A DNA stretch of 64,000 nucleotides from Escherichia coli (GTDB taxonomy: Bacteria > Pseudomonadota > Gammaproteobacteria > Enterobacterales > Enterobacteriaceae). Under the pieces are notes generated by a model. The model did not search any database. It was not told the origin of the DNA and was given only the letters and a program-made list of their open reading frames with translations. The stretch's first letter is position 1, and each line of letters starts with the position of its first letter. Where the stretch lies: assembly GCF_011045215.1 (NCBI RefSeq), contig NZ_CP049201.1; one strand, 5' to 3'. Below, in pieces: positions 878 to 62,800 of the stretch. The position numbers were made by a program, and so were the translations under genes.

Positions 878-4424
<3,547 letters not shown>

Positions 4425-7168: not shown

Positions 7169-7385
7169 ATAACTCTCCAGTAACAAAGCTGCCGCAGCAA
7201 GCCAAAGTGAGTTGAGTATAACGCAAATTTGCTACTGGTCCGATGGGTGCAATGGTCTGAATTACGGGCTAATTACAGGCAGAAATGCGTGATGTGTGCC
7301 ACACTTGTTGACGTTACTATTTTGTTAACCACTCTTCCGGCGAGGAAAGTTAGCCCGCTGGTGCATTGATAATAAGGAGAAATGA

Positions 7386-8454: not shown

Positions 8455-8568
8455 GGGGGCTCTGTTGGTTCTCCCGCAACGCTACTCTGTTTACCAGGTC
8501 AGGTCCGGAAGGAAGCAGCCAAGGCAGATGACGCGTGTGCCGGGATGTAGCTGGCAGGGCCCCCACCC
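8455..8568 (+). ncRNA. ffs: 4.5S RNA (SRP RNA)
   Basis: Sequence reads GGGGGCTCTGTTGGTTCTCCCGCAACGC...GGAAGGAAGCAGCCAAGGCAGA...GGGCCCCCACCC, matching the 114-nt 4.5S RNA including the conserved domain IV loop; located between atl and ybaA. Confidence 0.93.
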
Positions 8569-23266: not shown

Positions 23267-23418
23267 AGCACAACAATCGCAGTTGCAATTATTGCGTACA
23301 GCCAGTACATTCTGGCGTTTTCGAGCACAGGCGCAGGCGGTCAAAGGTTAAACAACTGTTACTTTTGATACGTTTAAAACGCGCCGTGAGTACCACCGTA
23401 ACAAGCAGGCATACACTT

Positions 23419-23970
23419 ATGACCGCGACTGCACAGCAGCTTGAGTATCTCAAAAATAGCATCAAAAGCATTCAGGACTACCCAAAACCCGGCATTCTTT
23501 TCCGCGATGTCACCAGCTTACTGGAAGACCCGAAAGCTTACGCTCTCAGCATCGACTTGCTGGTTGAGCGTTACAAAAATGCGGGCATTACCAAAGTTGT
23601 CGGCACCGAAGCGCGTGGCTTCTTGTTTGGCGCTCCGGTAGCTCTGGGTCTGGGCGTTGGCTTTGTGCCGGTCCGTAAACCGGGCAAACTGCCGCGTGAA
23701 ACCATCAGTGAAACTTACGATCTGGAATACGGCACCGATCAGCTGGAAATCCACGTTGATGCCATCAAACCGGGCGACAAAGTTCTGGTGGTGGACGATC
23801 TGCTGGCAACCGGCGGCACTATCGAAGCGACCGTTAAACTGATCCGTCGTCTGGGTGGTGAAGTGGCTGACGCTGCGTTCATTATCAACCTGTTCGATCT
23901 CGGCGGCGAACAGCGTCTCGAAAAACAGGGCATTACCAGCTACAGCCTTGTCCCGTTCCCGGGCCATTAA
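23419..23970 (+). CDS. apt: adenine phosphoribosyltransferase
   Basis: 183-aa product from the internal Met ([31 protein letters not shown]...); PRPP-binding motif [13 protein letters not shown]; track ORF 23365-23970 is an extension. Confidence 0.95.
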
Positions 23971-24098
23971 TTATCGCCAGTCTTGTGCTGCCCACGCTAC
24001 GGACAGCACAAGATGTGCATTCAGCCTCGCCGTTCTGACGGGGCTGTGTTAGCATTACCCCTTCGTGAATCCACCTTCCAGCGTTTCAGAGCCTGCCA

Positions 24099-26030
24099 AT
24101 GAGTTATCAGGTCTTAGCCCGAAAATGGCGCCCACAAACCTTTGCTGACGTCGTCGGCCAGGAACATGTGCTGACCGCACTGGCGAACGGCTTGTCGTTA
24201 GGGCGTATTCATCATGCTTATCTTTTTTCCGGCACCCGTGGCGTCGGAAAAACCTCTATCGCCCGACTGCTGGCGAAGGGGCTAAACTGCGAAACCGGCA
24301 TTACCGCGACGCCGTGCGGCGTGTGCGATAACTGTCGTGAAATCGAGCAGGGGCGCTTTGTCGATCTGATTGAAATCGACGCCGCCTCGCGCACCAAAGT
24401 TGAAGATACCCGCGACCTGCTGGATAACGTCCAGTACGCTCCGGCGCGTGGTCGTTTCAAAGTTTATCTCATCGACGAAGTGCATATGCTGTCGCGCCAC
24501 AGCTTTAACGCACTGTTAAAAACTCTTGAAGAGCCGCCGGAGCACGTTAAGTTTCTGCTGGCGACGACCGATCCACAGAAATTGCCGGTGACGATTTTGT
24601 CGCGCTGTTTGCAATTTCATCTCAAGGCGCTGGATGTCGAGCAAATTCGCCATCAGCTTGAGCACATCCTCAACGAAGAACATATCGCTCACGAGCCGCG
24701 GGCGCTGCAATTGCTGGCACGCGCCGCTGAAGGCAGCCTGCGAGATGCCTTAAGTCTGACCGACCAGGCGATTGCCAGCGGTGACGGCCAGGTTTCAACC
24801 CAGGCGGTCAGTGCGATGCTGGGTACGCTTGACGACGATCAGGCGCTGTCGCTGGTTGAAGCGATGGTCGAGGCCAACGGCGAGCGCGTAATGGCGCTGA
24901 TTAATGAAGCCGCTGCCCGTGGTATCGAGTGGGAAGCGTTGCTGGTGGAAATGCTCGGCCTGTTGCATCGTATTGCGATGGTACAACTTTCGCCTGCTGC
25001 ACTTGGCAACGACATGGCCGCCATCGAGCTGCGGATGCGTGAACTGGCGCGCACCATACCGCCGACGGATATTCAGCTTTACTATCAGACGCTGTTGATT
25101 GGTCGCAAAGAATTACCGTATGCGCCGGACCGCCGCATGGGCGTTGAGATGACGCTGCTGCGCACGCTGGCGTTCCATCCGCGTATGCCGCTGCCTGAGC
25201 CAGAAGTGCCACGCCAGTCCTTTGCACCCGTCGCGCCAACGGCAGTAATGACGCCAACCCAGGTGCCGCCGCAACCGCAATCAGCGCCGCAGCAGGCACC
25301 GACTGTACCGCTCCCGGAAACCACCAGCCAGGTGCTGGCGGCGCGCCAGCAGTTGCAGCGCGTGCAGGGAGCAACCAAAGCAAAAAAGAGTGAACCGGCA
25401 GCCGCTACCCGCGCGCGGCCGGTGAATAACGCTGCGCTGGAAAGACTGGCTTCGGTCACCGATCGCGTTCAGGCGCGTCCGGTGCCATCGGCGCTGGAAA
25501 AAGCGCCAGCTAAAAAAGAAGCGTATCGCTGGAAGGCTACCACTCCGGTGATGCAGCAAAAAGAAGTGGTCGCCACGCCGAAGGCGCTGAAAAAAGCGCT
25601 GGAACATGAAAAAACGCCGGAACTGGCGGCGAAGCTAGCGGCAGAAGCCATTGAGCGCGACCCGTGGGCGGCACAGGTGAGCCAACTTTCGCTACCAAAA
25701 CTGGTCGAACAGGTGGCGTTAAATGCCTGGAAAGAGGAGAGCGACAACGCAGTATGTCTGCATTTGCGCTCCTCTCAGCGGCATTTGAACAACCGAGGTG
25801 CACAGCAAAAACTGGCTGAAGCGTTGAGCACGTTAAAAGGTTCAACGGTTGAACTGACTATCGTTGAAGATGATAATCCCGCGGTGCGTACGCCGCTGGA
25901 ATGGCGTCAGGCGATATACGAAGAAAAACTTGCGCAGGCGCGCGAGTCCATTATTGCGGATAATAATATTCAGACCCTGCGTCGGTTCTTCGATGCGGAG
26001 CTGGATGAAGACAGTATCCGCCCCATTTGA
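24099..26030 (+). CDS. dnaX: DNA polymerase III subunits tau (full length) and gamma (by frameshift)
   Basis: 643-aa ORF, AAA+ clamp-loader Walker A GTRGVGKTS; the internal slippery site yields gamma. Confidence 0.97.
   Translation: MSYQVLARKWRPQTFADVVGQEHVLTALANGLSLGRIHHAYLFSGTRGVGKTSIARLLAKGLNCETGITATPCGVCDNCREIEQGRFVDLIEIDAASRTKVEDTRDLLDNVQYAPARGRFKVYLIDEVHMLSRHSFNALLKTLEEPPEHVKFLLATTDPQKLPVTILSRCLQFHLKALDVEQIRHQLEHILNEEHIAHEPRALQLLARAAEGSLRDALSLTDQAIASGDGQVSTQAVSAMLGTLDDDQALSLVEAMVEANGERVMALINEAAARGIEWEALLVEMLGLLHRIAMVQLSPAALGNDMAAIELRMRELARTIPPTDIQLYYQTLLIGRKELPYAPDRRMGVEMTLLRTLAFHPRMPLPEPEVPRQSFAPVAPTAVMTPTQVPPQPQSAPQQAPTVPLPETTSQVLAARQQLQRVQGATKAKKSEPAAATRARPVNNAALERLASVTDRVQARPVPSALEKAPAKKEAYRWKATTPVMQQKEVVATPKALKKALEHEKTPELAAKLAAEAIERDPWAAQVSQLSLPKLVEQVALNAWKEESDNAVCLHLRSSQRHLNNRGAQQKLAEALSTLKGSTVELTIVEDDNPAVRTPLEWRQAIYEEKLAQARESIIADNNIQTLRRFFDAELDEDSIRPI
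25382..25393 (+). promoter_or_regulatory. dnaX programmed -1 ribosomal frameshift site (A AAA AAG heptamer plus shifted-frame stop)
   Basis: AAAAAAG at 25382-25388 lies in the dnaX frame as A AAA AAG; the -1 frame reads AAA AAA GAG TGA; upstream SD-like AGGGAG and downstream GC stem-loop (ccggcagccgctacccgcgcgcggccgg). Confidence 0.9.
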
Positions 26031-26067
26031 TCGTAAGCACAGCTTACGTTCGTCATCCTTAACGTGA

Positions 26068-26411
<344 letters not shown>

Positions 26412-26412
<1 letters not shown>

Positions 26413-27017
26413 TGCAAACCAGCCCGCTGTTAACACAGCTTATGGAAGCACTGCGCTGTCTGCCGGGCGTGGGCCCGAAGTCGGCACAGCGTATGGCGTT
26501 CACGCTGCTTCAGCGCGATCGTAGCGGCGGGATGCGTCTGGCGCAGGCGCTCACCCGGGCGATGTCGGAAATCGGCCACTGCGCCGATTGCCGCACCTTC
26601 ACCGAACAGGAAGTCTGTAACATCTGTTCGAATCCGCGTCGTCAGGAAAACGGTCTAATCTGTGTGGTGGAGAGTCCGGCGGACATTTACGCCATTGAGC
26701 AGACGGGGCAGTTTTCAGGTCGTTATTTTGTGTTGATGGGACATCTGTCACCGCTGGACGGCATCGGTCCGGATGATATCGGGCTTGATCGTCTGGAACA
26801 GCGTCTGGCAGAGGAAAAAATCACTGAAGTGATCCTCGCCACCAATCCCACGGTTGAAGGTGAAGCTACCGCTAACTACATTGCCGAGCTTTGCGCGCAA
26901 TATGACGTGGAAGCCAGCCGAATCGCTCATGGCGTACCGGTTGGCGGCGAACTGGAAATGGTCGATGGCACCACGCTGTCACACTCCCTTGCCGGGCGTC
27001 ATAAGATTCGTTTTTAA
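26412..27017 (+). CDS. recR: recombination protein RecR
   Basis: 201-aa ORF with C4 zinc-finger ([16 protein letters not shown]) and Toprim domain; start overlaps the ybaB stop (TGATG). Confidence 0.95.
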
Positions 27018-27046
27018 GCAAACGAGAGCAGGATCACCTGCTCTCG

Positions 27047-27075
27047 CTTGAAATTATTCTCCTTTGTCCCCATCT
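27047..27075 (+). promoter_or_regulatory. sigma32 heat-shock promoter of htpG
   Basis: CTTGAAA at 27047-27053 and CCCCATCT at 27068-27075 with 14-nt spacer, matching the sigma32 consensus CTTGAAA-N13-15-CCCCATNT. Confidence 0.75.
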
Positions 27076-27126
27076 CTCCCTCATCCTGTTTTTAACCTTA
27101 AAATGGCATTATTGAGGTAGACCTAC

Positions 27127-29001
27127 ATGAAAGGACAAGAAACTCGTGGTTTTCAGTCAGAAGTGAAACAGCTTCTGCACCTGATGATCCATTCTCTCTA
27201 TTCCAATAAAGAAATCTTCCTGCGTGAGCTTATCTCTAACGCCTCCGATGCGGCGGACAAGCTGCGTTTCCGCGCGCTCTCTAACCCGGACCTGTACGAA
27301 GGTGATGGCGAACTGCGCGTTCGTGTCTCTTTCGATAAAGACAAGCGCACGCTGACCATCTCCGATAACGGCGTGGGGATGACCCGCGACGAAGTGATTG
27401 ACCATCTGGGGACTATCGCTAAATCCGGTACCAAATCATTCCTCGAATCCCTGGGTTCTGACCAGGCGAAAGACAGCCAGCTGATCGGTCAGTTTGGTGT
27501 TGGTTTCTACTCTGCGTTTATCGTGGCCGACAAAGTGACCGTGCGTACTCGCGCGGCAGGCGAAAAACCAGAAAACGGCGTCTTCTGGGAATCGGCTGGC
27601 GAAGGTGAATACACCGTTGCCGACATCACCAAAGAAGATCGTGGTACTGAAATCACCCTGCATCTGCGTGAAGGCGAAGACGAGTTCCTCGATGACTGGC
27701 GCGTGCGTTCCATCATCAGCAAATACTCCGACCATATCGCGCTGCCGGTAGAGATCGAAAAACGCGAAGAGAAAGATGGCGAAACCGTTATCTCCTGGGA
27801 AAAAATCAACAAAGCGCAGGCGCTGTGGACTCGTAACAAGTCGGAAATCACCGATGAAGAGTATAAAGAGTTCTACAAACACATCGCCCACGACTTTAAC
27901 GATCCGCTGACCTGGAGCCACAACCGCGTTGAAGGTAAGCAGGAGTACACCAGCCTGCTGTACATCCCGTCCCAGGCTCCGTGGGATATGTGGAACCGTG
28001 ATCATAAACACGGCCTGAAACTGTATGTTCAGCGTGTGTTCATCATGGACGACGCAGAACAGTTCATGCCGAACTATCTGCGCTTCGTGCGTGGTCTGAT
28101 TGACTCCAGCGATCTGCCGCTGAACGTTTCCCGTGAAATCCTCCAGGACAGCACGGTAACGCGTAACCTGCGCAATGCGCTGACCAAGCGTGTGCTGCAA
28201 ATGCTGGAAAAACTGGCGAAAGACGACGCGGAAAAATACCAGACCTTCTGGCAACAGTTTGGCCTGGTACTGAAAGAAGGTCCGGCGGAAGATTTCGCTA
28301 ACCAGGAAGCGATCGCCAAATTGCTGCGTTTTGCTTCTACCCATACCGATTCTTCTGCGCAGACCGTGTCTCTGGAAGACTACGTTTCCCGCATGAAAGA
28401 AGGGCAGGAGAAAATCTACTACATCACCGCAGACAGCTATGCGGCAGCGAAGAGCAGCCCGCACCTGGAACTGCTGCGTAAGAAAGGCATCGAAGTTCTG
28501 CTGCTTTCCGACCGCATCGATGAGTGGATGATGAACTATCTGACTGAGTTCGATGGCAAGCCGTTCCAGTCGGTGTCTAAAGTTGACGAGTCGCTGGAAA
28601 AACTGGCTGACGAAGTTGATGAGAGCGCGAAAGAAGCGGAGAAAGCACTGACTCCGTTCATCGACCGTGTGAAAGCCCTGCTCGGCGAGCGCGTGAAAGA
28701 TGTCCGTCTGACTCACCGTCTGACCGATACGCCAGCGATTGTCTCTACCGATGCGGACGAAATGAGCACTCAGATGGCGAAACTGTTTGCCGCAGCGGGC
28801 CAGAAAGTGCCGGAAGTGAAATATATCTTCGAACTGAACCCGGATCACGTACTGGTGAAACGTGCGGCAGATACTGAAGATGAAGCGAAGTTCAGCGAGT
28901 GGGTAGAACTGCTGCTGGATCAGGCGCTGCTGGCAGAACGCGGCACGCTGGAAGATCCGAACCTGTTTATTCGTCGTATGAACCAGCTGCTGGTTTCCTG
29001 A
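27127..29001 (+). CDS. htpG: Hsp90-family chaperone HtpG
   Basis: 624-aa ORF with GHKL ATPase N-terminal domain motifs ([20 protein letters not shown]). Confidence 0.97.
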
Positions 29002-29826: not shown

Positions 29827-29957
29827 TCAAGCCGCAGCAGATCTGCTTTCGGGCAGGTCTGCTCATCCTCCTCAGGCAATACCTCTTACAGCAATTAGTT
29901 CTTCTTCCTCACTTTTCCGCTACAATTATCAACAAGTTGAATCGATAAGAGGCGGTA

Positions 29958-33344: not shown

Positions 33345-33435
33345 TCGTAGGCCAGATAAGGCGTTCACGCCGCATCTGGCATTTGGCATCTCGATGCCTG
33401 ATGCGACGCTGGCGCGTCTTATCATGCCTACATAT
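33345..33435. repeat. REP element pair downstream of gsk
   Basis: cgtaggccagataaggcgttcacgccgcatctggca ... gcctgatgcgacgctggcgcgtcttatcatgcctac, REP consensus in inverted orientation. Confidence 0.8.
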
Positions 33436-39107: not shown

Positions 39108-39191
39108 ACACCGTCGCTTAAAGTGACGGCATAATAATAAAAAAATGAAATTCCTCTTTGACGGGCCAATAGCGATATTGGCCATTTTTTT
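39108..39191 (+). ncRNA. chiX: small regulatory RNA ChiX (MicM/SroB)
   Basis: Sequence ACACCGTCGCTTAAAGTGACGGCATAATAATAAAAAAATGAAATTCCTCTTTGACGGGCCAATAGCGATATTGGCCATTTTTTT: 5-prime hairpin, A-rich seed region, terminator hairpin plus U-run; located in the ybaK-ybaP intergenic region where ChiX is encoded. Confidence 0.85.
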
Positions 39192-40484: not shown

Positions 40485-41030
40485 CGTAGGCCGGATAAGG
40501 CGTTCACGCCGCATCCGGCATCCGAGCACCATTGCCTGATGCGACGCTTACGCGTCTTATCAGGCCTACAAACCTGTGCCTGAACCGTAGGCCGGAGAAG
40601 GCGTTCACGCCGCATCCGGCATCCGAGCACCATTGCCTGATGCGACGCTTACGCGTCTTATCAGGCCTACAAACCTGTGCCTGAACCGTAGGCCGGAGAA
40701 GGCGTTCACGCCGCATCCGGCATCCGAGCACCATTGCCTGATGCGACGCTTACGCGTCTTATCAGGCCTACAAACCTGTGCCTGAACCGTAGGCCGGAGA
40801 AGGCGTTCACGCCGCATCCGGCATCCGAGCACCATTGCCTGATGCGACGCTTACGCGTCTTATCAGGCCTACAAACCTGTGCCTGAACCGTAGGCCGGAG
40901 AAGGCGTTCACGCCGCATCCGGCATCCGAGCACCATTGCCTGATGCGACGCTTACGCGTCTTATCAGGCCTACAAACCTGTGCCTGAACCGTAGGCCGGA
41001 GAAGGCGTTCACACCGCATCCGGCAGTCAT
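40485..41030. repeat. tandem array of REP-containing units (BIME-like), five full 101-bp copies plus a degenerate sixth
   Basis: Unit cgtaggccggagaaggcgttcacgccgcatccggcatccgagcaccattgcctgatgcgacgcttacgcgtcttatcaggcctacaaacctgtgcctgaac recurs starting at 40485, 40586, 40687, 40788, 40889 (period exactly 101 bp); generates the identical 76-aa track ORFs on the minus strand. Confidence 0.9.
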
Positions 41031-46412: not shown

Positions 46413-47768
46413 ATGGCGCGATTCCAGTTTAAAAACCGTAAAAATAATGGACTTATTTTTTTAATAAGTTTTATGGTGATGGGAGAAGCTGCAATTGCTG
46501 CACCGCTGCCACAATGGGCGAATGCCCCAGCGGTAACGCCAGTTGCCCGATTATCTTTACAGGAAAGTATATTACGCGCCTTTGCGCGAAATCCCGACGT
46601 CACTCAACAGGCGGCGCAGATAGGCATTGGCGAAGCGCAAATTGATGAAGCCAAAAGTGCCTGGTATCCGCACGTTGGATTAACCGGCAACGCGGGGCCG
46701 TCCCGACAAACGGACTCCAGCGGCAGGCTTGATAACAACGTTTCGTATGGCATAACCCTGACACAACTGGTGTATGACTTTGGTAAAACTAACAACGATA
46801 TCAATCTGCAAACTGCCGCCCGTGACAGCTACCGCTTTAAATTGATGGCTACCTTAACCGATGTTGCAGAGAAAACGGCGACTGCCTATATGGAAGTCAG
46901 TCGTTATCAGGCTTTGTGCGATGCGGCTCAACGCAATATTCACTCGCTGGAAAACGTCTACAACATGGCGGCATTGCGCGCTAACGCTGGCCTGAACTCA
47001 TCGTCGGATGAATTACAGGCCCAGACGCGTATTGCCGGAATGCGCTCAACGCTGGAGCAATATCAGGCGCAGATGGCGAGCGCCAAAGCGCAACTGGCGG
47101 TGCTCACTGGCGTACAGCCAGAGGCGATAGCCGCGCCACCTGCTGAATTAGCCGAGCAGCCGGTATCGCTGAAGAATATTGATTACCAGTCCATCCCGCT
47201 GGTGCTGGCGGCAGAAAACTTACGCCAGTCAGCACAGTACGGCGTGGAAAAAACGAAAGCGCAATACTGGCCAACGCTCAGTATTCAGGGGGGTAAAACG
47301 CGCTACCAGACCAGCGACCGCTCGTATTGGGATGATCAGCTACAACTGAACGTTAACGCGCCGCTGTATCAAGGCGGCGCGGTTTCTGCCCAGGTGCAAC
47401 AGGCCGAAGGGCAACAAAAAATCTCTGCCTCGCAGGTCGAACAGGCAAAACTGGATGTGCTGCAACGAGCGTCTGTGGCATATGCGAACTGGACCGGCGC
47501 ACGGGGTCGCGAAGAAGCCGGTTTAGCGCAATCCGAAAGTGCGCACAAAACGCGAGATGTGTACCAAAATGAATATAAATTGGGTAAACGCAGTCTGAAT
47601 GATCTATTAACCGTCGAGCAAGATGTCTTTCAGGCGCAATCGGCTGAAATAAATGCCAATTATGATGGCTGGGTCGCCGCCGTAAATTATGCCGCTGCGG
47701 TGAATAACCTTATTCCTTTAGCGGGAATTAAACAGGGCTTATACAACGACTTACCCGACTTGAAATAA
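46413..47768 (+). CDS. TolC-family outer-membrane channel, probable type I secretion outer membrane protein
   Basis: 451-aa ORF with N-terminal signal-like hydrophobic segment (LIFLISFMVMGEAAIAAP); TolC-like composition and helical repeat pattern (LSLQESILRAFARNPDV, ...YDFGKT..., coiled-coil Q/A-rich segments); sits immediately upstream of the giant repeat protein gene; preceded by an AT-rich region. Confidence 0.7.
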   Translation: MARFQFKNRKNNGLIFLISFMVMGEAAIAAPLPQWANAPAVTPVARLSLQESILRAFARNPDVTQQAAQIGIGEAQIDEAKSAWYPHVGLTGNAGPSRQTDSSGRLDNNVSYGITLTQLVYDFGKTNNDINLQTAARDSYRFKLMATLTDVAEKTATAYMEVSRYQALCDAAQRNIHSLENVYNMAALRANAGLNSSSDELQAQTRIAGMRSTLEQYQAQMASAKAQLAVLTGVQPEAIAAPPAELAEQPVSLKNIDYQSIPLVLAAENLRQSAQYGVEKTKAQYWPTLSIQGGKTRYQTSDRSYWDDQLQLNVNAPLYQGGAVSAQVQQAEGQQKISASQVEQAKLDVLQRASVAYANWTGARGREEAGLAQSESAHKTRDVYQNEYKLGKRSLNDLLTVEQDVFQAQSAEINANYDGWVAAVNYAAAVNNLIPLAGIKQGLYNDLPDLK

Positions 47769-47870
47769 TCCTGCCATTATTAATAGTGGGCCGTTGTTAA
47801 GTGATTACCTTTGTCTTATTTAGATAAATGGACTCGCTAAGGATGTGCGCCATTTATCAGGAATGCTATT

Positions 47871-50800
47871 ATGAGCCTGATTATTGATGTTATTTCGCGT
47901 AAAACATCCGTCAAACAAACGCTGATTAATCCTGGCGACGTCACGGTTGTTATTTATGAGCCTTCCGTGGTGCAGGTTCATGCTCAGGCCTCTGCCGTTG
48001 CGCGTTACGTCCGTGAAGGAAATGACCTGCTGATCTATTTGCAGGACGGCACGGTGATCCGCTGCAACGGTTATTTCCTGCAAGCGGCGAATACAGCTGA
48101 ACAATCGGAACTGGTGTTTGCCGATGGTCAACAGCTAACCCATGTCACCTTCGCCGATACTGCTGCGGGTGGATTAGCCCCCGTAGAACTGACTGCCCAG
48201 ACCACTGCGATTGAAAGCATTGCGCCATTTCTTGATACCGTTGCTCAGACCAGCGCCTTCCCGTGGGGTTGGCTGGCGGGGGCGGCGGTAGGTGGCGGTG
48301 CGCTTGGTGCACTGCTGGCAAGCGGTGGCGATGGCGACTCGAAAACAGAAGTGATTAATAACCCTACGCCACCTGCTGAGCCTGGCAACGCCACACCATC
48401 ATTTTTAGTTACCGATAATCAGGGCGATCAGCGCGGCATTCTCGCCACCAATGACATCACCGATGACACCACGCCAACCTTTAGCGGCAGCGGGCAGGCG
48501 GGGGCGACTATTCAGATTAAAGACAGTAACGGCAATACTATTGCCAGTACTCAGGTAGACAACAACGGTCACTGGAGTGTCTCGTTACCCACGCAAAGTG
48601 CAGGTGAACATACCTGGTCAGTGGTGCAAATTGTCGGCAGTACCATCACTGACGCCGGTTCGATAACGTTAACCATCGACAATAGTCAGGCCAGCGTGCA
48701 GGTTGCCACCACCGCAGGCGATAACATTATTAACGCCAGCGAACAGGCCGCCGGGTTTACGCTTTCTGGCACCAGTAGCCATCTGGCACAGGGAACAGAA
48801 CTCACCGTCACACTTAACGGCAAAACCTACACCACCAGCGTAGGCGCTAACGGTGCCTGGAGCGTGCAGGTGCCGACCGCCGATGCACAGGCGTTAGGCG
48901 AAGGGAATCAGGCGGTACTGGTCAGTGGGAAAGACACCACAGGCAATACGGTCACCGGCGCGCAGCTGCTAACGGTCGATACCCAACCGCCAACGCTTGC
49001 CATCAACACCATCGCTCAGGACAACATCATCAGTGCTGCGGAACATAACGTCGCGCTGGTACTGAGCGGCACGTCGAATGCAGAAGCGGGGCAAACCGTA
49101 ACACTGACCGTCAACGGGAAAAGCCATACAGCAACCGTCGGTAGCGACGGAACCTGGCAAGTGACGCTGCCTGCCACGGAAGTCCAGGCACTGGCGGAGG
49201 GTAATTACGCTGTCAATGCCAGTGTCAGCGATCGGGCAGGGAACACCACCAGCCACAGCGCGAATCTCACGGTAGACACCTCAGCACCCGTGGTCAGTGT
49301 TAATACCGTGGCGGGCGACGATATTCTTAATAATGCCGAGCAGGCCGTCGCGCAGATCATCTCCGGACAAGTTAGCGGTGCTTCTCCTGGCGATACGGTA
49401 ACGGTGAAATTGGGCACTCATGTCCTGACGGGCATCGTGCTGGCAGATGGCAGCTGGAATGTGGCGTTGGACCCGGCGGTAACCCGCACGCTGGATCGCG
49501 GAGCCAATACGATTTTCGTCACCGTGACAGATGCTGCAGGAAATACTGGCGCGGCGTCTCGAGCAATCACGCTGGTCGGTGTTTCTCCGTTGATCACCAT
49601 TAACACCGTCTCCGGCGATGACATTATCAGTGGCGCAGAAAAAGGTGCGCCACTGACCCTTACCGGTAGCACTCAACAGGCTGAGACAGGACAAACCGTC
49701 ACAGTAACCCTGGCTGGACAGAGTTTTACCACTACCGTGCAGGCCGATGGCTCCTGGAGTCTGACGGTACCTGCCGCCGCGATGGGAAATCTGCCTGACG
49801 GCGCGGTGGCGATTACCGCTTCTGTGACGGATCTCAGCGGCAATACCGGCAACACCTCCCGCACCATTACCGTCGACAGCCAGGCCCCGGCCTTAAGCAT
49901 TGATCCACTGACCGCTGATAACATCATTAACGCCGCCGAAAGCGGGCAGGATCTGCCCATCACCGGCACCACCGACGCTCAGCCGGGGCAGACGGTGACC
50001 GTTACGTTAAATGGGCAGACGTATCAGGGCGTCGTGCAGCCAGACGGCACCTGGAGCGTGACTGTGCCCGCCGCCAACGTGGGCGCACTGGCTGACGGCA
50101 ACGCTACGGTCACCGCCAACGTGAACGATGTCGCCGGTAATCCGAGCAGCGTCTCACGCGTGGCGCTGGTCGATGCCACGCCGCCGGTGGTGACCATTAA
50201 TCCGGTGGCGACCGATAACGTCATTAACACGCCGGAACATACCCAGGCGCAAATCATCAGCGGTACGGTTACTGGCGCTCAGGCGGGCGATATCGTCACC
50301 GTGACGCTGAATAATGTGAATTACACCACGGTGGTGGATGGTTCCGGCAACTGGAGCCTGGGCGTTCCGGCCTCGGTGGTCAGTGGGCTGGCGGACGGCA
50401 GTTATCCTGTCAGCGTCTCGGTAACCGACAAAGCCGGAAACACGGGCAGCCAGTCACTGACTGTCACGGTCAATACCGCAGCGCCCCTTATCGGCATTAA
50501 CAGCATTGCGGGCGATGATGTGATTAATGCCAGCGAAAAAGGGGCCGATCTCCAGATTACCGGCACCAGCGATCAGCCAGTGGGTACCGCCATCACCGTG
50601 ACGCTCAACGGGCAAAACTATGCGGCGACGACCGATGCCTCCGGCAACTGGAGCGTCAACGTTCCGGCATCGGCGGTAACCGCACTGGGCCAGGCCAACT
50701 ACACGGTAACGGCGGCGGTAACCAGCGATATCGGCAACAGCACCACCGCCAGCCATAATGTGCTGGTCGACAGCGCGCTGCCCGGCGTGACCATTAACCC

Positions 50801-53800
50801 GGTGGCAACCGATGATATTATTAACGCCGCCGAAGCGGGCGTGGCGCAAACCATCAGCGGGCAGGTGACTGGAACCGCCGTTGGCGACGCGGTAACCGTG
50901 ACGCTGGGCGGTAATACCTACACCACCACCGTGCAGGCCGGCTTAAGCTGGAGCGTGGACGTTCCGGCGGACGCTATTCAGGCGCTGGGTAATGGCGATT
51001 TAACGGTTAATGCCTCGGTCACCAATCAAAACGGCAACACCGGCAGCGGCACGCGGGATATCACCATCGACGCCAATCTGCCCGGCCTGCGGGTCGATAC
51101 GGTGGCGGGCGATGATGTGGTCAATATCATCGAGCACGGGCAGGCGCTGGTGATTACCGGCAGCAGTTCGGGGCTGGCAGAAGGCACGCCGCTTACCGTT
51201 ACGATTAATAATGTGGAATACACCACTGCGGTGCAGGCCGATGGTAGCTGGAGCGTGGGCGTCACGGCGGCGCAGGTTAGCGCCTGGCCTGCGGGGACGG
51301 TTAATATTGCCGTGTCCGGGGAAAGTAGCGCCGGAAATCCGATAAGCATTACGCATCCGGTAACGGTGGATCTCACTCCGGCGGCTATCACCATCAACAC
51401 TATCGCCACGGACGATGTGATTAACGCTGCAGAAAAAGGGGCTAATTTAACTCTTTCCGGCACCACCACTAACGTAGAAGCAGGGCAAACCGTCACTGTC
51501 ACCTTTGGCGGTAAAAATTACACCGCCAGCGTGGCGGGCGATGGTAGCTGGACTGCCACCGTTCCCGCCGCCGATCTGGCGGCATTACCGGAAGGCAGCG
51601 CCTCCGCTCAGGCCAGCGTCAGCAATATCAACGGCAATAGCGCCTCGGCGGTGCATAACTACAGCGTCGACAGCAGCGCGCCAACCATCATTATCAATAC
51701 CGTCGCCAGCGACAATATCGTCAACGCCAGCGAAGCCGATGCGGGTGTGACGGTGAGCGGCAGCACCACCGCTGAAGCGGGGCAGATTGTTACGGTAACG
51801 CTCAATAGCCCGACCGTGCAGACGTATCAGGCAACGGTACAGGCGGACGGCAGCTGGAGCATCAATATTCCGGCGGCAGATCTTGAGGCATTGACCGATG
51901 GCAGCCACACCCTGACCGCGACGGTCAATGACAAAGCGGGCAACCCGGCGAGCACCACGCATAATCTGGCGGTGGATCTCACCGTCCCGGTACTCACCAT
52001 CAATACCATTGCGGGCGATGACATTATTAACGCCGCCGAGCACGGACAGGCGCTGGTGATTTCTGGTTCCAGCACAGGCGGAGAGGCGGGAGATGTCGTC
52101 ACCGTCACGCTAAACAGTAAAACCTACACCACGACGCTGGATGCCTCCGGCAACTGGAGCGTCGGTGTTCCGGCGGCGGATGTCACCGCGCTGGGTAGCG
52201 GCCCGCAAACCATCACTGCCAGCATTACCGATGCGGCAGGTAATAGCGACAGCGAAACGCACACGGTCACCGTTAACCTTACCGCGCCGACCATTGGCAT
52301 TAACACCATCGCCACCGATGACGTGATTAATGCCACCGAAAAAGGCGCAGATCTGCAAATCTCCGGCACCAGTAATCAGCCAGCGGGCACCACGATTACG
52401 CTGACGTTTAACGGGCAAAATTACACCGCCACGACGGACGCCGCAGGTAACTGGAGCACCACGGTGCCAGCCTCTGCCGTCGGTGCGCTGGGCGAAGCCA
52501 GCTACACGGTGACGGCGAACGTCACCGACAGCGCAGGCAACAGCAATTCCGCCAGCCATAACGTGCAGGTCAATACCGCGCAGCCTGGCGTCACCATTAA
52601 TCCGGTTGCGACTGACGATATTATTAACGCCGCCGAATCGGGCAATGCGCAAACCATCAGCGGTCAGGTAACGGGCGCGGCGGCGGGCGATACCGTCACC
52701 GTGACGCTTGGCGGGAAAACCTACACGGCTACCGTGCAGGGGAATCTAAGCTGGAGCGTGGATGTTCCGGCTGCGGATATTCAGGCCATCGGTAATGGCG
52801 ACCTGACTGTTAACGCCTCAGTGACCAACGGCGTTGGCAATACCGGCAGCGGTTCGCGAGATATTACTATCGACGCCAACCTGCCTGGCCTGCGCGTCGA
52901 TACCGTGGCGGGCGATGATGTGGTTAACAGCATCGAACACGGTCAGGCACTGGTGATAACTGGTAGCAGCAGCGGGCTGGCGGTGGGCGCGGCGCTGACG
53001 GTGGTGATCAATAACGTCACCTATGGCGCGACAGTATTAGCCGATGGCACATGGAGCGTTGGTGTTCCGGCGGTAGACGTGAGTAACTGGCCTGCGGGTA
53101 CGGTGAATATCACGGTAAGTGGCACTAACACAGCCGGAACAACATCCACCATTACCCATCCGGTCACCGTCGATCTGGCGGCGGTGGTGATTTCCATTAA
53201 CACCATCTCCGGCGATGATGTGATTAACGCCGCCGAAAAAGGGGCAGATTTAACCCTTTCCGGCAGCACCTCCGGCGTAGAGCCAGGGCAAACGGTCACC
53301 GTCACCTTTGGCGGCAAAACCTACACCGCCACCGTAGCAGGCGATGGTAGCTGGACAACCACCGTACCTGCCGCCGATCTCAGCGTGTTACGCGACGGCG
53401 ACGCCACGGTACAGGCCAGCGTCAGCACTATTAACGGCAACACGGCTTCGGCAACCCACGCTTACAGCGTTGATGCCACTGCCCCGACGCTTGCCATTAA
53501 TACCATCGCCACCGACGATATTCTGAACGCCGCCGAGGCGGGCAATCCGCTAACCATCAGCGGCAGTAGCACCGCTGAAGCGGGGCAGACGGTAACTGTC
53601 ACGCTTAATGGCGTGACTTACACCGGCACCGTCCTGGCGGACGGGAGCTGGAGCGTCAGCGTGCCGACGGCGGATCTCAGCAATCTGACCGCCAGCCAGT
53701 ACACCGTCAGCGCCTCGGTAAACGATAAAGCGGGTAACCCGGCATCCACCACTCACGGGCTGGCGGTGGATCTCACCGTGCCGGTGCTGACCATCAACAC

Positions 53801-56800
53801 CGTCTCCGGCGATGACATTATTAACGCCGCCGAACACGGACAGGCGCTGGTGATCTCCGGCTCCAGTACTGGCGGCGAAGCGGGCGATGTCATCACCGTC
53901 ACGTTAAACAGTAAAACCTACACCACCACGCTGGATGCCTCCGGTAACTGGAGCGTCGGCGTTCCGGCGGCAGATGTCACCGCACTTGGCAGCGGCCCGC
54001 AAACCATCACGGCCACGATTACGGATATCGCGGGTAATAGCGATGATGCTAGCCGCACGGTCACCGTAAATCTCACCGCGCCAACCATTGGCATCAACAC
54101 CATCGCCACCGATGACGTGATTAACGCCACGGAAAAAGGCGCGGATCTGCAAATTACCGGCACCAGTAATCAGCCCGCGGGCACCACCATTACGGTGACG
54201 TTGAACGGGCAAAATTACACCGCTACTACCGATAGCAACGGCAACTGGAGCGCCACGGTGCCAGCGTCAGCGGTTAGCACGCTGGGTGAAGCTAACTACA
54301 CGGTAACCGCGAACGTCACCGACAGCGCAGGTAACAGCAATTCCGCCAGTCATAACGTGCTGGTCAACAGCGCCTTGCCTGCCGTCACCATTAACGCGGT
54401 GGCGACCGACGATATTATTAACGCTGCCGAAGCGGGCAATGCGCAAACCATCAGCGGGCAGGTGACGGGTGCCGCGGCGGGCGACACGGTTACCGTTACG
54501 CTGGGCGGCAACACCTACACCGCTACCGTACAGGCTAATTTAAGCTGGAGCGTTAGCGTGCCAGCGGCGGATATTCAGGCGCTGGGCAACGGCGACCTGA
54601 CAATTAATGCCTCGGTCACTAACGTCGTCGGCAACACCGGCAGCGGCTCGCGCGATATCACGATCGACGCCAATCTGCCTGGCTTACGGGTCGATACCGT
54701 GGCGGGCGATGATGTGATTAACAGCATTGAGCACAATCAGGCGCTGGTGATCACCGGTAGCAGCACCGGGCTGACGGCGGGAACGGCGTTAACGGTCGAG
54801 ATTAACAACGTTACTTATGGCGCGACGGTGTTAGCCGACGGCACATGGAACCTCGGTGTTCCGGCGGCAGACGTCAGCAACTGGCCTGCGGGTACGGTGG
54901 ATATCACGGTAAGCGGCACCAACAGCGCCGGAACAACCTCCACCATTACCCATCCGGTTACCGTCGATCTGTCGGCAGTCGCCATCACCATTAACACTCT
55001 CTCTGGTGATGATGTGATCAACGCCGTCGAAAAAGGCGAAACGCTGGTCGTAAGCGGCAGCACCAGCGGTGTCGAAGCCGGGCAAACGGTGACCGTCACC
55101 TTTGGCGGCAAAAATTACACCACCACTGTGGAAGCTAACGGTAGCTGGACGGTGAACGTACCGCCTGCCGATCTCGCTGCGCTACCGGACGGTGCGGGCA
55201 ACGTGCAGGCGAGTGTCAGCAACATCAACGGCAATAACGCCCAGGCGGATCGTACGTACAGCGTCGATGCCACCGCGCCACTTGTGACCATCAACACCAT
55301 CGCCAGCGACGATATCCTTAACGTGAGCGAAGCTGGCGCGGGGATCACCATCAGCGGCACTACCACGGCGCAGGCCGGGCAGACGCTGACCGTCACGCTC
55401 AATAATAACACGTACCAGACCACGGTTCAGGCGGATGGCACCTGGAGCGTGAATGTTCCGGCAGCGGATTTAAGCGGATTAACCGCCAGCAGTTACACCG
55501 TGACCGCCACGGTGAGCGACAAAGCGGGTAACCCGGCAAGCGCCGACCACGCGCTGGCGGTGGACGTTACCGCACCGGATCTCACCATTAATACCGTCGC
55601 GGGCGATGACATTATTAATGCCATCGAACACGGTCAGGCGCTGGTCGTCAGCGGAACCAGCACGGGCGCGGCGGCGGGTGATGTGGTCACGGTTAACCTG
55701 AACGGTAAAAACTACACCACCACGCTGGATGCCTCCGGTAACTGGAGCGTGGGCATTCCTGCGGTGGATGTGACGGCGCTGGCAACCGGCAACCAGACCA
55801 TTACCGCCAGCCTGAGCGATCGCGCGGGCAACAGCGACAGCACGACTCACAATGTGACCGTTGATCTCAGCGGCCCGACGCTGACCATCAACACCGTCTC
55901 CGGCGATGACATTATTAATAATGCGGAGAAAACCCAGGACTTGATCATCAGCGGCGGCTCCAGCGGTCTGGCGGCAGGCACTACGGTCACCGTGATGTTG
56001 AACGGCCTGGCGTACAGCGCTACTACCGACGGCTCCGGCAACTGGAGCGTTACCGTGCCTGCTTCTTCGGTTGGCGCGCTCGGCGAGGCGGTGTATCAGA
56101 TTAGCGCCAGCGCCACCGACAGCGCGGGCAACAGTGGCAGCACCACCCATACGGTGAATGTCGAATCGCTCCTGCCTGGGGTAATCATTAATACCGTGGC
56201 GGGCGATGACATTATCAACGCCGCTGAAATCGCTGTGGCGCAGACCATCAGCGGTCAGGTCACGGGGACGGCGGTTGCGGGTAATACGGTGATTGTCACC
56301 ATTGGCGGCAATCAATATAACGCCACCGTGCAGTCAGATTTAAGCTGGAGCGTCAGCGTACCTGCGAACGTTTTGCAGGCGCTGGGCAACGGTGAACTGA
56401 CCATCAGCGCCTCGGTGACTAATTCCGCAAATAATACCGGCACCACAACGCACGACATCGTGATAGATGCCAACCTGCCAGGTCTGCGCGTCGATACCGT
56501 GGCAGGCGATGATGTGATTAACAGCATCGAGCACACTCAGGCGTTGGTGATCACCGGTAGCAGTAGCGGACTGGCGGCGGGCGCGGCGTTGACGGTGGTT
56601 ATCAATAGCGTCACCTACGGCGCAACGGTTTTAGCGGATGGTAGCTGGAGCGTTGGTGTTCCGGCGGCAGATGTCACAAACTGGCCTGCGGGGACGGTCA
56701 ATATTGCCGTCTCTGGCACCAACACCGCCGGAACGACAACCAGTATTACCCATCCGGTGACCGTCGATCTCGCAGCCGTGGCGATCACCATCAACACCCT

Positions 56801-59800
56801 TTCCACTGACGATGTGATTAACGCCGCCGAAAAAGGCAGCGATTTGCAGCTCTCCGGCACCACCTCCGATGTGGAAGCGGGGCAAACCATCACCGTTATC
56901 TTCGGCGGCAAAAGCTACACCACCACGGTTGCCGCGGATAATACCTGGGGGCTGACGATCCCTGCCGCCGATGTTGCAACCTTGCCAGACGGCGCAGCAA
57001 ACGTCCAGGCCAGCGTCAGCAATGTCGCAGGGAACAGCGCCCAGGCAACGCATGCTTACAGCGTTGATGCCACTGCGCCCTCCGTTACCATCAACACCAT
57101 CGCCACGGACGATATTCTTAACGCCGCCGAAGCGGGATCGGCGCTGACCATCAGCGGCACCAGCACGGCGGAAGCCGGGCAGACGGTGACCGTAACGCTA
57201 AACGGCGTTAATTACAGCGGCAATGTGCAGGCAGACGGGAGCTGGAGCGTCAGCGTCCCGACCGGCGATTTAGCTAACCTCACTGCCAGCCCCTATACGG
57301 TGAGCGCAGCGGTCAGCGACAAAGCCGGAAATCTGGCTTCGGCGACGCATAACCTGACGGTGGACCTTGCCGCTCCGGTCGTCACCATTAACACGGTGGC
57401 GGGCGATGACATCATCAACGCCACGGAACACGGACAGGCGCAGATTATCAGCGGCTCGGCAACGGGCGCGACGACGGGTAACACGGTTTCCGTGACGATT
57501 GGCACGACCACCTACGCCACTGTGCTGGACGCCAACGGCAACTGGAGCATCGGCGTACCTGCCAGCGTGATTTCCGCACTGGCGCAGGGTGATGTAACCA
57601 TTACTGCCACGGTTACCGACTCCGCAGGCAACAGTGGCACGGCTTCGCACATTGTCAGCGTGGCGCTCGGCGCGCCGATACTCAGCATTAACACCATTGC
57701 CGTCGACGACATCCTCAACGCCACGGAGAAAGGTGCAGATCTGGCGATTACCGGCACCAGCAACCAGCCCGCGGGTACGCAGATTACCATTACGCTCAAC
57801 GGGCAAAATTACACCACCACTGCCGATGCATCCGGGAACTGGAGCGTAACCGTTCCGGCGTCACGGGTCAGCGCCCTCGGTGAAGCCACTTATACGGTGA
57901 CTGCCGCCGCCACTGACACCGATGGCAACAGCGGTTCCGCCAGCCATAATGTGCAGGTCAATACCGCGCTGCCGGGCGTCACCATTAACGTGGTGGCGAG
58001 CGACGATATTATTAACGCCGCCGAAGCGGGCGCGGGCCAGACCATCAGTGGGCAGGTGACGGGTGCTGCGGCAGGCGATACCGTTACCATAACGCTCGGC
58101 GGAGCGACTTACACCGCTACGGTGCAGGCGAATTTAAGCTGGAGCGTCGATGTTCCGGCCTCCGCGCTACAGGCGTTGGGCAACGGTGAGCTGACCATTT
58201 CGGCCTCGGTAACGAACAGCGTGGGCAATACAGGTAACGGCACGCGCGAAATCACCATCGACGCGAATCTCCCTGGTCTGCGGGTCGACACCGTGGCGGG
58301 CGATGACGTGGTCAACATTATCGAGCACAATCAGGCGCTGGTGATTACCGGCAGCAGCTCCGATCTGGCAGCGGGCAGCAACGTCACGCTGACCATAAAC
58401 GGGCAAACGTATGTTGCGGCGGTGCTGGCGGATGGCTCATGGAGCGTCGGCGTTCCGGCGGCAGATGTCAGCGCCTGGCCTGCGGGGAAGGTCACAATTA
58501 CGGCGAGCGGCAACACCACCGCCGGAAACCCGGTGAGCGTTACGCATCCGGTGACGGTCGATCTCACTGCGGTGGCGGTCAGCATCAACGCCATTACTGC
58601 CGATGACGTGATTAACGCTGCCGAAAAAGGCGCGGCGTTAACGCTCTCTGGCAGCACTACTGGTGTGGAGGCCGGACAAACGGTCACCGTCACCTTTGGC
58701 GGCAAAACTTACAGCGCCACGGTGGCTGCGAATGGTTCCTGGAGCACCTCGGTTCCGGCGGCAGATATGGCGGCCCTGCGTGATGGCGATGCCAGCGCAC
58801 AGGCCAGCGTCAGCAATGTTAACGGCAACAGCGCCACCACTACCCACGCATACAGCGTCGATGCCAGCGCGCCAACGGTGACCATTAACACCATTGCGGG
58901 CGACGACATTCTTAACGCCGCCGAAGCCGGAGCGGCGCTAACCATCACCGGCAGCAGCACGGCGGAAGTGGGGCAGACGGTGACCGTCACGCTCAATGGC
59001 GCAAACTATACCGGCACTGTACAGACGGACGGCAGCTGGAGCGTCAGTGTGCCGCCAGCCGACTTAAGCGCTCTGACCGCCAGCAACTACACCGTTAGCG
59101 CGGCGGTGAGCGACAAAGCCGGAAACCCGGCCTCGGTTAACCACAACCTGACGGTGGATACTTCCGTTCCGGTCGTCACCATCAACACGGTGGCAGGCGA
59201 TGATGTGATCAACGCGACGGAACACGCCCAGGCGCAGATCATCAGCGGCTCCGCCACGGGAGCGGTAACCGGTAGCACCGTGACGGTGACTATCGGCACA
59301 AATACCTTTACCACGGTGCTGGATGCCAGCGGCAACTGGAGCGTCGGCGTCCCGGCAAGCGTCGTCTCGGCACTGGCGAACGGCACGGTGACCATTAACG
59401 CCAGCGTCACTGATGCCGGAGGAAACAGCGGCAGCACCACCCATCAGGTGACGGTCAATACCGGGCTGCCGACCATTACCTTTAACGCTATCAGCGGCGA
59501 TAACGTCCTGAACGCCGATGAAAAAGGCCAGCCGTTGACCATCAGCGGTAGCAGTACGGGGCTGGCGACGGGCGCGCAGGTTACCGTCTCGCTCAACGGT
59601 CACAACTACAGTGCTACCACCGACGCAGCAGGCAACTGGACCTTAACCGTGCCGGTGAGCGATCTGGCGGCTCTAGGCCAGGCCAACTATACCGTCAGCG
59701 CCAGCGCCACCAGTGCGGCGGGCAACACCGCCAGCAGCCAGGCGAATTTACTGGTCGACAGCGGCCTGCCGGGCGTCACCATCAACACCGTAGCGGGCGA

Positions 59801-62800
59801 CGATATTATCAACGCCGCCGAAGCGGGGGCCGATCAAACCATCAGCGGGGTGGTGACTCGCGCCGCCGCAGGCGATACGGTCACCGTGACGCTGGGCGGC
59901 AACACTTACACAGCGCAGGTTCAGGCCGATTTAAGCTGGAGCGTCACCGTTCCGGCAGCCGATTTCCAGGCGCTGGGCAATGGTGATTTGACCATTACCG
60001 CCTCGGTCACCAACGCGAATGGCAACACTGGCAGCGGCACGCGGGATATCACCATTGACGCCAACCTGCCTGGGCTGCGGGTGGATACCGTGGCGGGCGA
60101 TGATATCGTCAACAGTATCGAGCACGGGCAGGCGCTGGTGATCACCGGCGGCAGTAGCGGCCTGAATGCAGGTGCTGTGCTGACGGTTACCATCAACAGT
60201 GTGGCGTATTCCGCCACGGTACAGGCGGACGGGAGCTGGAGCGTCGGCATTTCGGCGGCAAGCGTCAGCGCCTGGCCTGCGGGGCCGTTAACCGTTGATG
60301 TGGCAGGACAGAGCAGCGCCGGAAATCCGGTCAGCGTCAGCCATCCGTTCACCGTCGATTTAACTTCGGTGGCTATCAGCATCAACACCGTTGCCAGCGA
60401 CGACGTAATTAACGCCGCCGAGAAAGGCACCGACCTGACCCTTTCCGGCAGCACCAGCGGGATTGAAAGTGGGCAAACCGTTACCGTCACCTTTGGCGGT
60501 AAAACCTACACCGCAAGCGTCGCCGCCAATGGAAGCTGGAGCGTAACGGTTCCGGCGGCGGATCTGGCAGCTCTGCCAGACGGCGCGGCGAACGTGCAGG
60601 CCAGCGTCAGCAGCGCGAGCGGCAATAGCGCCTCAGCGACTCATGCGTACAGCGTTGACGCCAGCGCGCCGACGCTCACCATTAACACCATCGCCAGCGA
60701 TGACATCCTTAACGCGGCAGAGGCGGGAAATCCGCTGACCATCAGCGGCACCAGCACCGCCGAAACCGGGCAGACGGTGACCGTCACCCTTAACGGCGCA
60801 ACCTACAGCGGTAATGTGCAGGCAGATGGTAGCTGGAGCGTCAGCGTTCCCACTTCAGCCCTGGGCGCGCTCACCGCAAGCAATTATACCGTCAGCGCCA
60901 CCGTCAACGACAAAGCGGGTAACCCCGGCAGCGCCAGCCATAATCTGGTGGTAGACACCACCGCGCCGGTTCTTACCATAAATACCGTGGCGGGCGATGA
61001 CATCATCAACGATGCCGAACATGCGCAGGCGCTGGTGATCTCCGGCACCAGTAGCGGCGGGGAAGCGGGCGATGTGGTGAGCGTTGTGCTCAACGGCAAA
61101 ACCTACACCACCACCCTGGATGCCTCCGGCAACTGGAGCGTCGGCGTTCCGGCGGCGGATGTTACGGCACTCGGTAGCGGTGCGCAGACCATCACCGCCA
61201 GCGTCAGCGATCGGGCAGGCAACAGCGACGACGCCAGCCGCACCGTCACCGTTAGCCTCAGCGCGCCAGTGATTAGCATCAACACCATCGCGGGCGATGA
61301 TGTGATCAACGCGACGGAAAAAGGATCCGATCTGGCGCTTTCCGGCACCAGCGATCAGCCTGCGGGTACGGCGATCACCGTCACGCTGAACGGACAAAAC
61401 TACAGCGCCACTACCGACGCCTCCGGCAACTGGAGCGTTACTGTGCCCGCCTCGGCGGTCAGTGCGCTGGGCGAAGCGACCTACAGCGTCACGGCGAGCG
61501 TCACCAATGCCCAGGGCAACAGCAGCACCGCCAGCCATAACGTGCAGATCAATACCGCGCTGCCGGGCGTCACCCTTAATCCGGTGGCGACGGACGATAT
61601 TATCAATGCCGCCGAAGCGGGCAGCGCACAAACCATCAGCGGCCAGGTAACCGGGGCGGCGGCGGGCAGTACCGTCACCGTTGAACTGGGCGGTAAAACT
61701 TACACCGCCATCGTCCAGGCTGATTTAAGCTGGAACGTGAGCGTACCAGCCGCCGACTGGCAGGCGCTGGGTAACGGTGAGTTAACCGTTAACGCCTCGG
61801 TCACCAACGCCGTTGGCAACACCGGCAGCGGCACGCGCGATATCACCATCGATGCCAGTCTGCCTGGCCTGCGGGTGGATACCGTCGCGGGTGATGATGT
61901 GGTCAATATCATCGAACACAGTCAGGCGCAGGTGATCACCGGCAGCAGCTCTGGCTTTGCGGCGGGCACGGCGCTGACGGTGGTGGTAAATAACCAAACT
62001 TACGCCGCCACGGTGCTGGCGAACGGCAGCTGGAGCGTCGGCGTTCCGGCGGCGGATGTCAGCAACTGGCCTGTGGGAACGCTGAATATTAGCGTTAGCG
62101 GCGCAAACAGTGCCGGAACGCAAACCAGCATTACCCATCCGCTGACTGTTGATCTCACGACCGTCGCCGTCAGCATGAACAGCATCACCAGCGATGATGT
62201 GATTAACGCCGCCGAAAAAGGCGCGGCGCTAACGCTCTCCGGCAGCACGTCTGGCGTCGAAGCGGGGCAAACCGTCACCGTCACCTTTGGCGGCAAAACC
62301 TACACCTCCACGGTGGCGGCTAACGGTAGCTGGAGCACCACCGTTCCGGTTGCGGATATGGCGGCGCTGCGTGACGGCGATGCCAGCGCCCAGGTGCGGG
62401 TGACTAACGTCAACGGCAACAGCGCCACGGCAACGCACGAATACAGCGTCGATAGCGCCGCGCCAACGGTCACCATCAACACCATTGCCAGCGATAACAT
62501 CATCAACGCCAGCGAAGCGGCGGCGGGCGTAACGGTGTCCGGCACCAGCACGGCGGAAACCGGGCAGACGCTCACCGTCACGCTTAACGGCACTAACTAC
62601 CAGACCACGGTGCAGGCAGACGGCAGCTGGAGTTTAACGCTGCCCGCCAGCGACTTAACCGCACTGGCTAATAACGGCTACACCCTGACCGCCACGGTCA
62701 GCGATCTGGCGGGTAACCCTGGCAGCGCCAGCAAAGGCGTGACCGTCGATACCACTGCGCCGGTGATCAGTTTTAACACCGTGGCGGGCGATGATGTGAT

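Follow-up and report, generated by a model that had tools for sequence, protein, structure and literature searches.

The heptamer A_AAA_AAG at positions 25382-25388 of the 64,000-nt stretch of Escherichia coli DNA analyzed here (the window) almost certainly belongs to the canonical E. coli dnaX programmed -1 ribosomal frameshift cassette. The identity of the cassette is based on its anatomy, its identity to the K-12 sequence, its family membership and the conservation of its structure. All sequence-testable features that define the E. coli-type dnaX -1 frameshift family were found at the site, and a search for sequence features arguing against the canonical reading found none. The cassette is already known and experimentally characterized, is intact here, and involves no new biology. 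For the quality control of annotation, it means that dnaX in this strain merits two products, the 643-residue tau and the 431-residue gamma (-1 shift at codon 430), and that the A-run at the site is not a sequencing or assembly error. The features of the locus, all on the + strand, are as follows:

24099-26030, +: dnaX zero-frame ORF, tau subunit of DNA polymerase III (643 aa; ORF list and translation)
24099-25393, +: gamma coding region (zero-frame codons 1-430, -1 shift, Glu431, UGA)
25363-25427, +: DnaX ribosomal frameshifting element, Rfam RF00382 (model positions 1-65 of 65)
25366-25371, +: internal Shine-Dalgarno-like stimulator AGGGAG (sequence; 16S pairing)
25382-25388, +: slippery heptamer A_AAA_AAG, Lys429-Lys430 (sequence and phase)
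25388-25393, +: -1 frame GAG (Glu431) and UGA stop, end of gamma (translations)
25394-25423, +: 3' stimulatory stem-loop (MFE -18.0 kcal/mol; pairs identical to the Rfam consensus)

Domain organization of DnaX and its shorter product

Only one long ORF, 24099-26030 on the + strand, crosses the slippery site. Its assignment to dnaX in the original prediction was borne out by the NCBIfam equivalog NF005942 (gamma/tau subunit of DNA polymerase III), which scored 982.4 bits against a cutoff of 613, and by the RefSeq annotation of 5424 matching genomes. The genes of the neighborhood lie in the order acrR, mscK, rsmS, priC, ybaN, apt, dnaX, ybaB, recR, htpG, adk and hemH, as in K-12. Two minus-strand ORFs over the site (25085-25459 and 25281-25607) are unsupported and were set aside as being of the spurious kind commonly seen opposite GC-rich genes. 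Scanning of 23300-27200 for promoters and terminators revealed none above expectation.

Pfam analysis revealed five domains in the ORF product: DNA_pol3_delta2, DNAX_ATPase_lid, DNA_pol3_gamma3, tau_4 and tau_5. Residues 20-358 comprise the clamp-loader ATPase module and domain III, followed by the DnaB-binding tau domain IV (residues 417-498) and the alpha-binding domain V (residues 500-640). As the shift occurs at codon 430, at the start of the Pfam tau domain IV, gamma retains the clamp-loader domains I-III and lacks nearly all of domain IV in addition to the whole of domain V, which is how gamma is known to differ from tau. The PDB chains that match DnaX here include both lengths, 643 and 431 residues, and one of the latter, 8giy_B (431 aa), matches residues 1-430.

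Architecture of the frameshift cassette

The local sequence around the site is GTGCAGGGAGCAACCAAAGCAAAAAAGAGTGAACCGGCAGCCGCTACCCGCGCGCGGCCGGTGAAT. Position 25382 is the third base of a GCA codon, and the zero frame reads GCA AAA AAG AGU GAA, which gives the heptamer the X_XXY_YYZ phase required for tandem slippage, in line with the original prediction. When all in-phase positions of the dnaX ORF were checked for X_XXY_YYZ heptamers, A_AAA_AAG at 25382 was the only one. The sequence AAAAAAG also occurs in dnaX at 25512-25518 and 25590-25596; in both cases it begins at codon position 1 (AAA AAA G). These two were rejected as extra shift sites, because they have the wrong phase for tandem slippage and lack the arrangement of a Shine-Dalgarno element plus a hairpin.

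Upstream of the heptamer, AGGGAG occupies 25366-25371 and is separated from it by a spacer of exactly 10 nt (25372-25381), the distance that had been predicted. It forms a 6-bp duplex with the 3' end of 16S rRNA, with a pairing energy of -7.4 kcal/mol; the anti-Shine-Dalgarno sequence used in this calculation was taken from established knowledge, the window containing no 16S rRNA. Across the site, the -1 frame reads AAA AAA GAG TGA, so that a single Glu is added before the stop. Computing the frameshift product yielded a protein of 431 residues with the C-terminus RVQGATKAKKE, which agrees with the proposal that one codon and a stop in the -1 frame generate gamma.

Downstream, the stem-loop begins 5 nt after the heptamer. 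Its two arms (25394-25405 and 25411-25423) enclose the loop UACCC (25406-25410), with A25400 of the 5' arm and C25414 and G25417 of the 3' arm left unpaired. The covariance model RF00382 aligned to 25363-25427 with a score of 96.8 bits (gathering score 35, E = 5.8e-20), and the base pairs of this match are those of the minimum free energy fold.

Taken alone, the heptamer, the Shine-Dalgarno-like match and the hairpin are each statistically unremarkable, none standing out convincingly. AAAAAAG occurs 14 times in the window, compared to 8.9 expected. The pairing energy of AGGGAG lies within the top 2.9% of the 10-nt windows of dnaX and is not the best, with stronger anti-Shine-Dalgarno matches elsewhere in the gene, for example at 25792. 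The hairpin had been described as a strong GC hairpin, which holds for its absolute energy of -18 kcal/mol, but it is modest against GC-rich shuffles: the 30-nt hairpin has a z-score of -2.06, and 8 of 200 composition-matched shuffles fold equally well. For an 81-nt fold, the z-score is -0.63. As the single elements are weak, the case rests on their combination and phase, the Rfam score, the identity to K-12 and the covariation of the stem.

Conservation of the cassette in E. coli

Comparison with K-12 MG1655, the strain in which the frameshift mechanism was worked out, showed that the 65-nt cassette is 100% identical. It lies in the same gene, at the same codons (Lys429-Lys430) and in the same neighborhood (apt-dnaX-ybaB-recR-htpG), and the corresponding K-12 coordinates (7265-7329 of locus L001) carry the RefSeq label 'DnaX frameshifting element'. 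The base-for-base match leaves the heptamer and the stem-loop undisrupted, as the original prediction had anticipated. Elsewhere, dnaX differs from that of K-12 by 14 substitutions, none of them within 25363-25427; 11 are synonymous and three are non-synonymous (T356 for A, T578 for M and D638 for E). Over the whole gene, the identity is 99.3% to K-12 MG1655 and 99.9% to E. coli PapM-32-1. Identity to K-12 strongly suggests that the locus is functional; the earlier statement that the cassette confirms this goes too far.

A dnaX match was found in 5424 of 5426 complete E. coli genomes. Copies of the cassette without a single mismatch occur in 5372 of 5423 such genomes, whereas the whole gene is just 95-99% identical in 3478 of 5424. 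The cassette is thus invariant in 99% of E. coli against a gene varying by 1-5%, and its conservation exceeds that of the surrounding sequence. Two of the 5424 genomes have their dnaX match on a plasmid-labelled record, and two of the 5426 have no match; these cases are probably quirks of assembly or labelling.

Covariation of the hairpin across Enterobacterales

One genome per species was scanned with the pattern AGGGAG-N10-AAAAAAGAGTGA, which matched at least 120 stretches. After unrelated matches were dropped, at least 59 distinct enterobacterial cassettes remained (60 counting that of the window), and 34 distinct Enterobacterales sequences, taken from the cassettes listed, were aligned. 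Since AGGGAG, the spacing, the heptamer and GAGTGA are all preset by the pattern, their invariance in the set is uninformative; the hairpin and the flanks are independent of it. Accordingly, the cassettes of Citrobacter, Enterobacter, Kosakonia, Pantoea, Erwinia, Serratia, Mixta and Buttiauxella have the same Shine-Dalgarno element, spacing, heptamer and GAG UGA as required by the pattern. They share with E. coli an outer stem CCGGC/GCCGG that begins 5 nt past the heptamer. The inner part of the hairpin differs: many other genera have a 4-bp inner helix GCGC/GCGC with a loop of 5-8 nt, compared to a 5-bp helix with a C bulge in E. coli.

When the Rfam structure was imposed on the 34 sequences, 86.6% of the cells were paired, compared to 28-52% with the 3' partners slid by 1-3 columns. 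Five of the 11 pairs changed on both sides, and the observed covariation score was reached by none of 500 shuffles. The closing pair at the stem base is A-U in 21 sequences and G-C in 12; further swaps from G-C to A-U occurred once at columns 36/57 (Mixta) and once at columns 42/50 (Enterobacter ENT03). In one compensatory case, a synonymous change from GAA to GAG is partnered by a Val-to-Ala change on the opposite arm. RNAalifold, run on the MAFFT alignment, missed all but the outer stem, since the inner helix shifts register between genera; for this reason, the Rfam pairs were counted explicitly and the sequences were folded singly. On single-sequence folding, 33 of the 34 sequences formed a hairpin (-18 to -30 kcal/mol) whose distance from the heptamer was unchanged. 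In the alignment, covariation across genera supports the stem and is better evidence for the hairpin than the folding energy.

The exception among the 34 is Candidatus Pantoea persica (locus L052, 3006-3033, minus strand), in which AGGGAG, its spacing, the slippery heptamer and GAG UGA are all retained. In its cassette, the E. coli-type stem is without a 3' arm and the sequence is predicted to fold differently; this locus may represent a cassette without the 3' stimulator.

Many of the pattern matches came from Collinsella (L002, L003, L012, L013 and others) and a few from other unrelated taxa; they lack the CCGGC hairpin and were left out of the alignment. The Collinsella context is near-identical among contigs (TATGAAGGGAGAATCTGTGCCAAAAAAGAGTGAGAGCACGGG), with AGGGAG followed after 6 nt by GTG. 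It looks like a Shine-Dalgarno sequence plus a GTG gene start, unrelated to the dnaX cassette.

A separate observation concerns a contig labelled Chryseobacterium sp. 18061 (Bacteroidota; L065), which carries an Enterobacteriaceae-type dnaX cassette at 3024-3051. This cassette differs very little from the one in Citrobacter sp. 18056, which belongs to the same project, and the assembly labelled Chryseobacterium is probably mislabelled or contaminated.

Proposed mechanism of frameshifting and its alternatives

Frameshifting on E. coli dnaX depends on three signals: the slippery A AAA AAG, the upstream Shine-Dalgarno element and the downstream hairpin (PMC5389563). The in vitro efficiency is 84% with the intact cassette and drops to 50% with AGGGAG mutated, 20% with the hairpin deleted and 2% with G AAG AAG in place of the heptamer (PMC5389563). 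The hairpin slows the EF-G-catalysed translocation of two tRNA-Lys, and the Shine-Dalgarno element promotes repeated futile attempts by EF-G (PMC5389563). A single E. coli tRNA-Lys (mnm5s2UUU) decodes both AAA and AAG and pairs better with AAA; 50% of the ribosomes shift and terminate one codon later (PMC5009743). No tRNA genes were found in the window. The exact timing of the slip is debated in the literature (PMC5389563), which has no bearing on the identification of the cassette.

Based on these experiments, we propose that, once ribosomes translating dnaX have the two Lys codons of A_AAA_AAG in the P and A sites, the hairpin 5 nt downstream would sit at the mRNA entry channel and hinder the EF-G-driven translocation, while AGGGAG, 10 nt upstream, would pair with the 3' end of 16S rRNA. 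Re-pairing of the tRNA-Lys anticodons one base back, onto AAA AAA, could then follow. Shifted ribosomes would read GAG and then UGA to release the 431-residue gamma, and unshifted ribosomes would continue to make the 643-residue tau. The shift itself, its efficiency of ~50% and the roles of the three signals probably hold here as published for the identical sequence. With about 50% shifting, tau and gamma are known to be produced at near 1:1 from the identical K-12 sequence (PMC5009743, PMC5389563), a ratio that would be expected in this strain as well.

Single-molecule work on the cassette reported -2 and +2 excursions (PMC5389563). In the window, the -2/+1 frame stays open for 12 further codons, encoding VNRQPLPARGR after the shift-site Lys-Arg, up to the stop TGA at 25423-25425. 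It is unlikely, with a small chance at best, that the strain also makes minor products at the site (-2/+1, for example), or that the three substitutions in tau alter the behavior of the replisome. If true, either effect would not be specific to the window, given that almost every E. coli has this same cassette.

One dnaX gene also gives rise to tau and a shorter gamma in Thermus thermophilus, by transcriptional slippage, and in Caulobacter crescentus, by proteolysis (PMC5009743). These mechanisms differ from that of the window dnaX, which has the anatomy of a ribosomal frameshift site. On the Caulobacter model, the motifs would be a by-product of coding for the tau linker, with the site unused and any gamma arising from proteolysis of tau. 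A degree of conservation is expected in a protein-coding region, the three elements are individually unremarkable, and proteolytic gamma does exist in Caulobacter (PMC5009743). Yet the helix is kept by compensatory changes, including the GAA-to-GAG change with Val-to-Ala opposite, and 99% of E. coli have the 65 nt unchanged, in a gene that varies by 1-5% in 3478 of 5424 genomes. Moreover, frameshifting has been proved directly by experiment on the identical sequence (PMC5389563, PMC5009743), making an unused site hardly credible. For K-12, the published outcome of a synonymous change of the heptamer to G AAG AAG is the loss of gamma. Production of gamma by slippage of RNA polymerase on the A-run, rather than by the ribosome, is likewise very improbable: six consecutive A occur at 25382-25387 and T. 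thermophilus dnaX does use this route (PMC5009743), but bacterial transcriptional slippage takes place on runs of ~9 A or T (PMC5009743), a conserved Shine-Dalgarno-like element at fixed spacing and a covarying hairpin would have no role in it, and in vitro translation of a defined mRNA with the cassette yields the shift (PMC5389563).

Additional features of the window

Of the loci aligned over long distances, that of E. coli PapM-32-1 (baboon stool, Gambia) most resembles the core region 4099-46030, with an identity of 99.61% (162 mismatches and no gaps over 41.9 kb). The same strain provides the best dnaX match among the 5424 genomes. The window thus seems to derive from an E. coli strain that differs from every complete genome in the collection. 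In the adk-hemH intergenic region (29827-29881), the alignment with K-12 breaks, K-12 being longer by ~104 nt, and PapM-32-1 is collinear with the window.

After ybaT comes a variable island (46413-64000). It begins with an ORF for a TolC-family outer-membrane protein (46413-47768), and a giant frame then stays open from 47871 to the end of the window (5376 codons without a stop), matching the RefSeq 'BapA-related adhesin SiiEA'. The island is covered to at least 80% in just 577 of 5426 E. coli genomes, with a best identity of 95.7%, compared to 99.6% for the core region on its left.

A 101-nt unit is present in 5.4 tandem copies, with 99% matching, between ybaQ and copA (40485-41025). Each copy matches Rfam naRNA4/CssrE, a palindromic element of the REP/BIME type, and a further single copy is located at 33350-33428. 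The SRP RNA gene ffs (8463-8559, 68 bits) and the sRNA gene sroB (39108-39191, 82 bits) occupy the positions expected from K-12.
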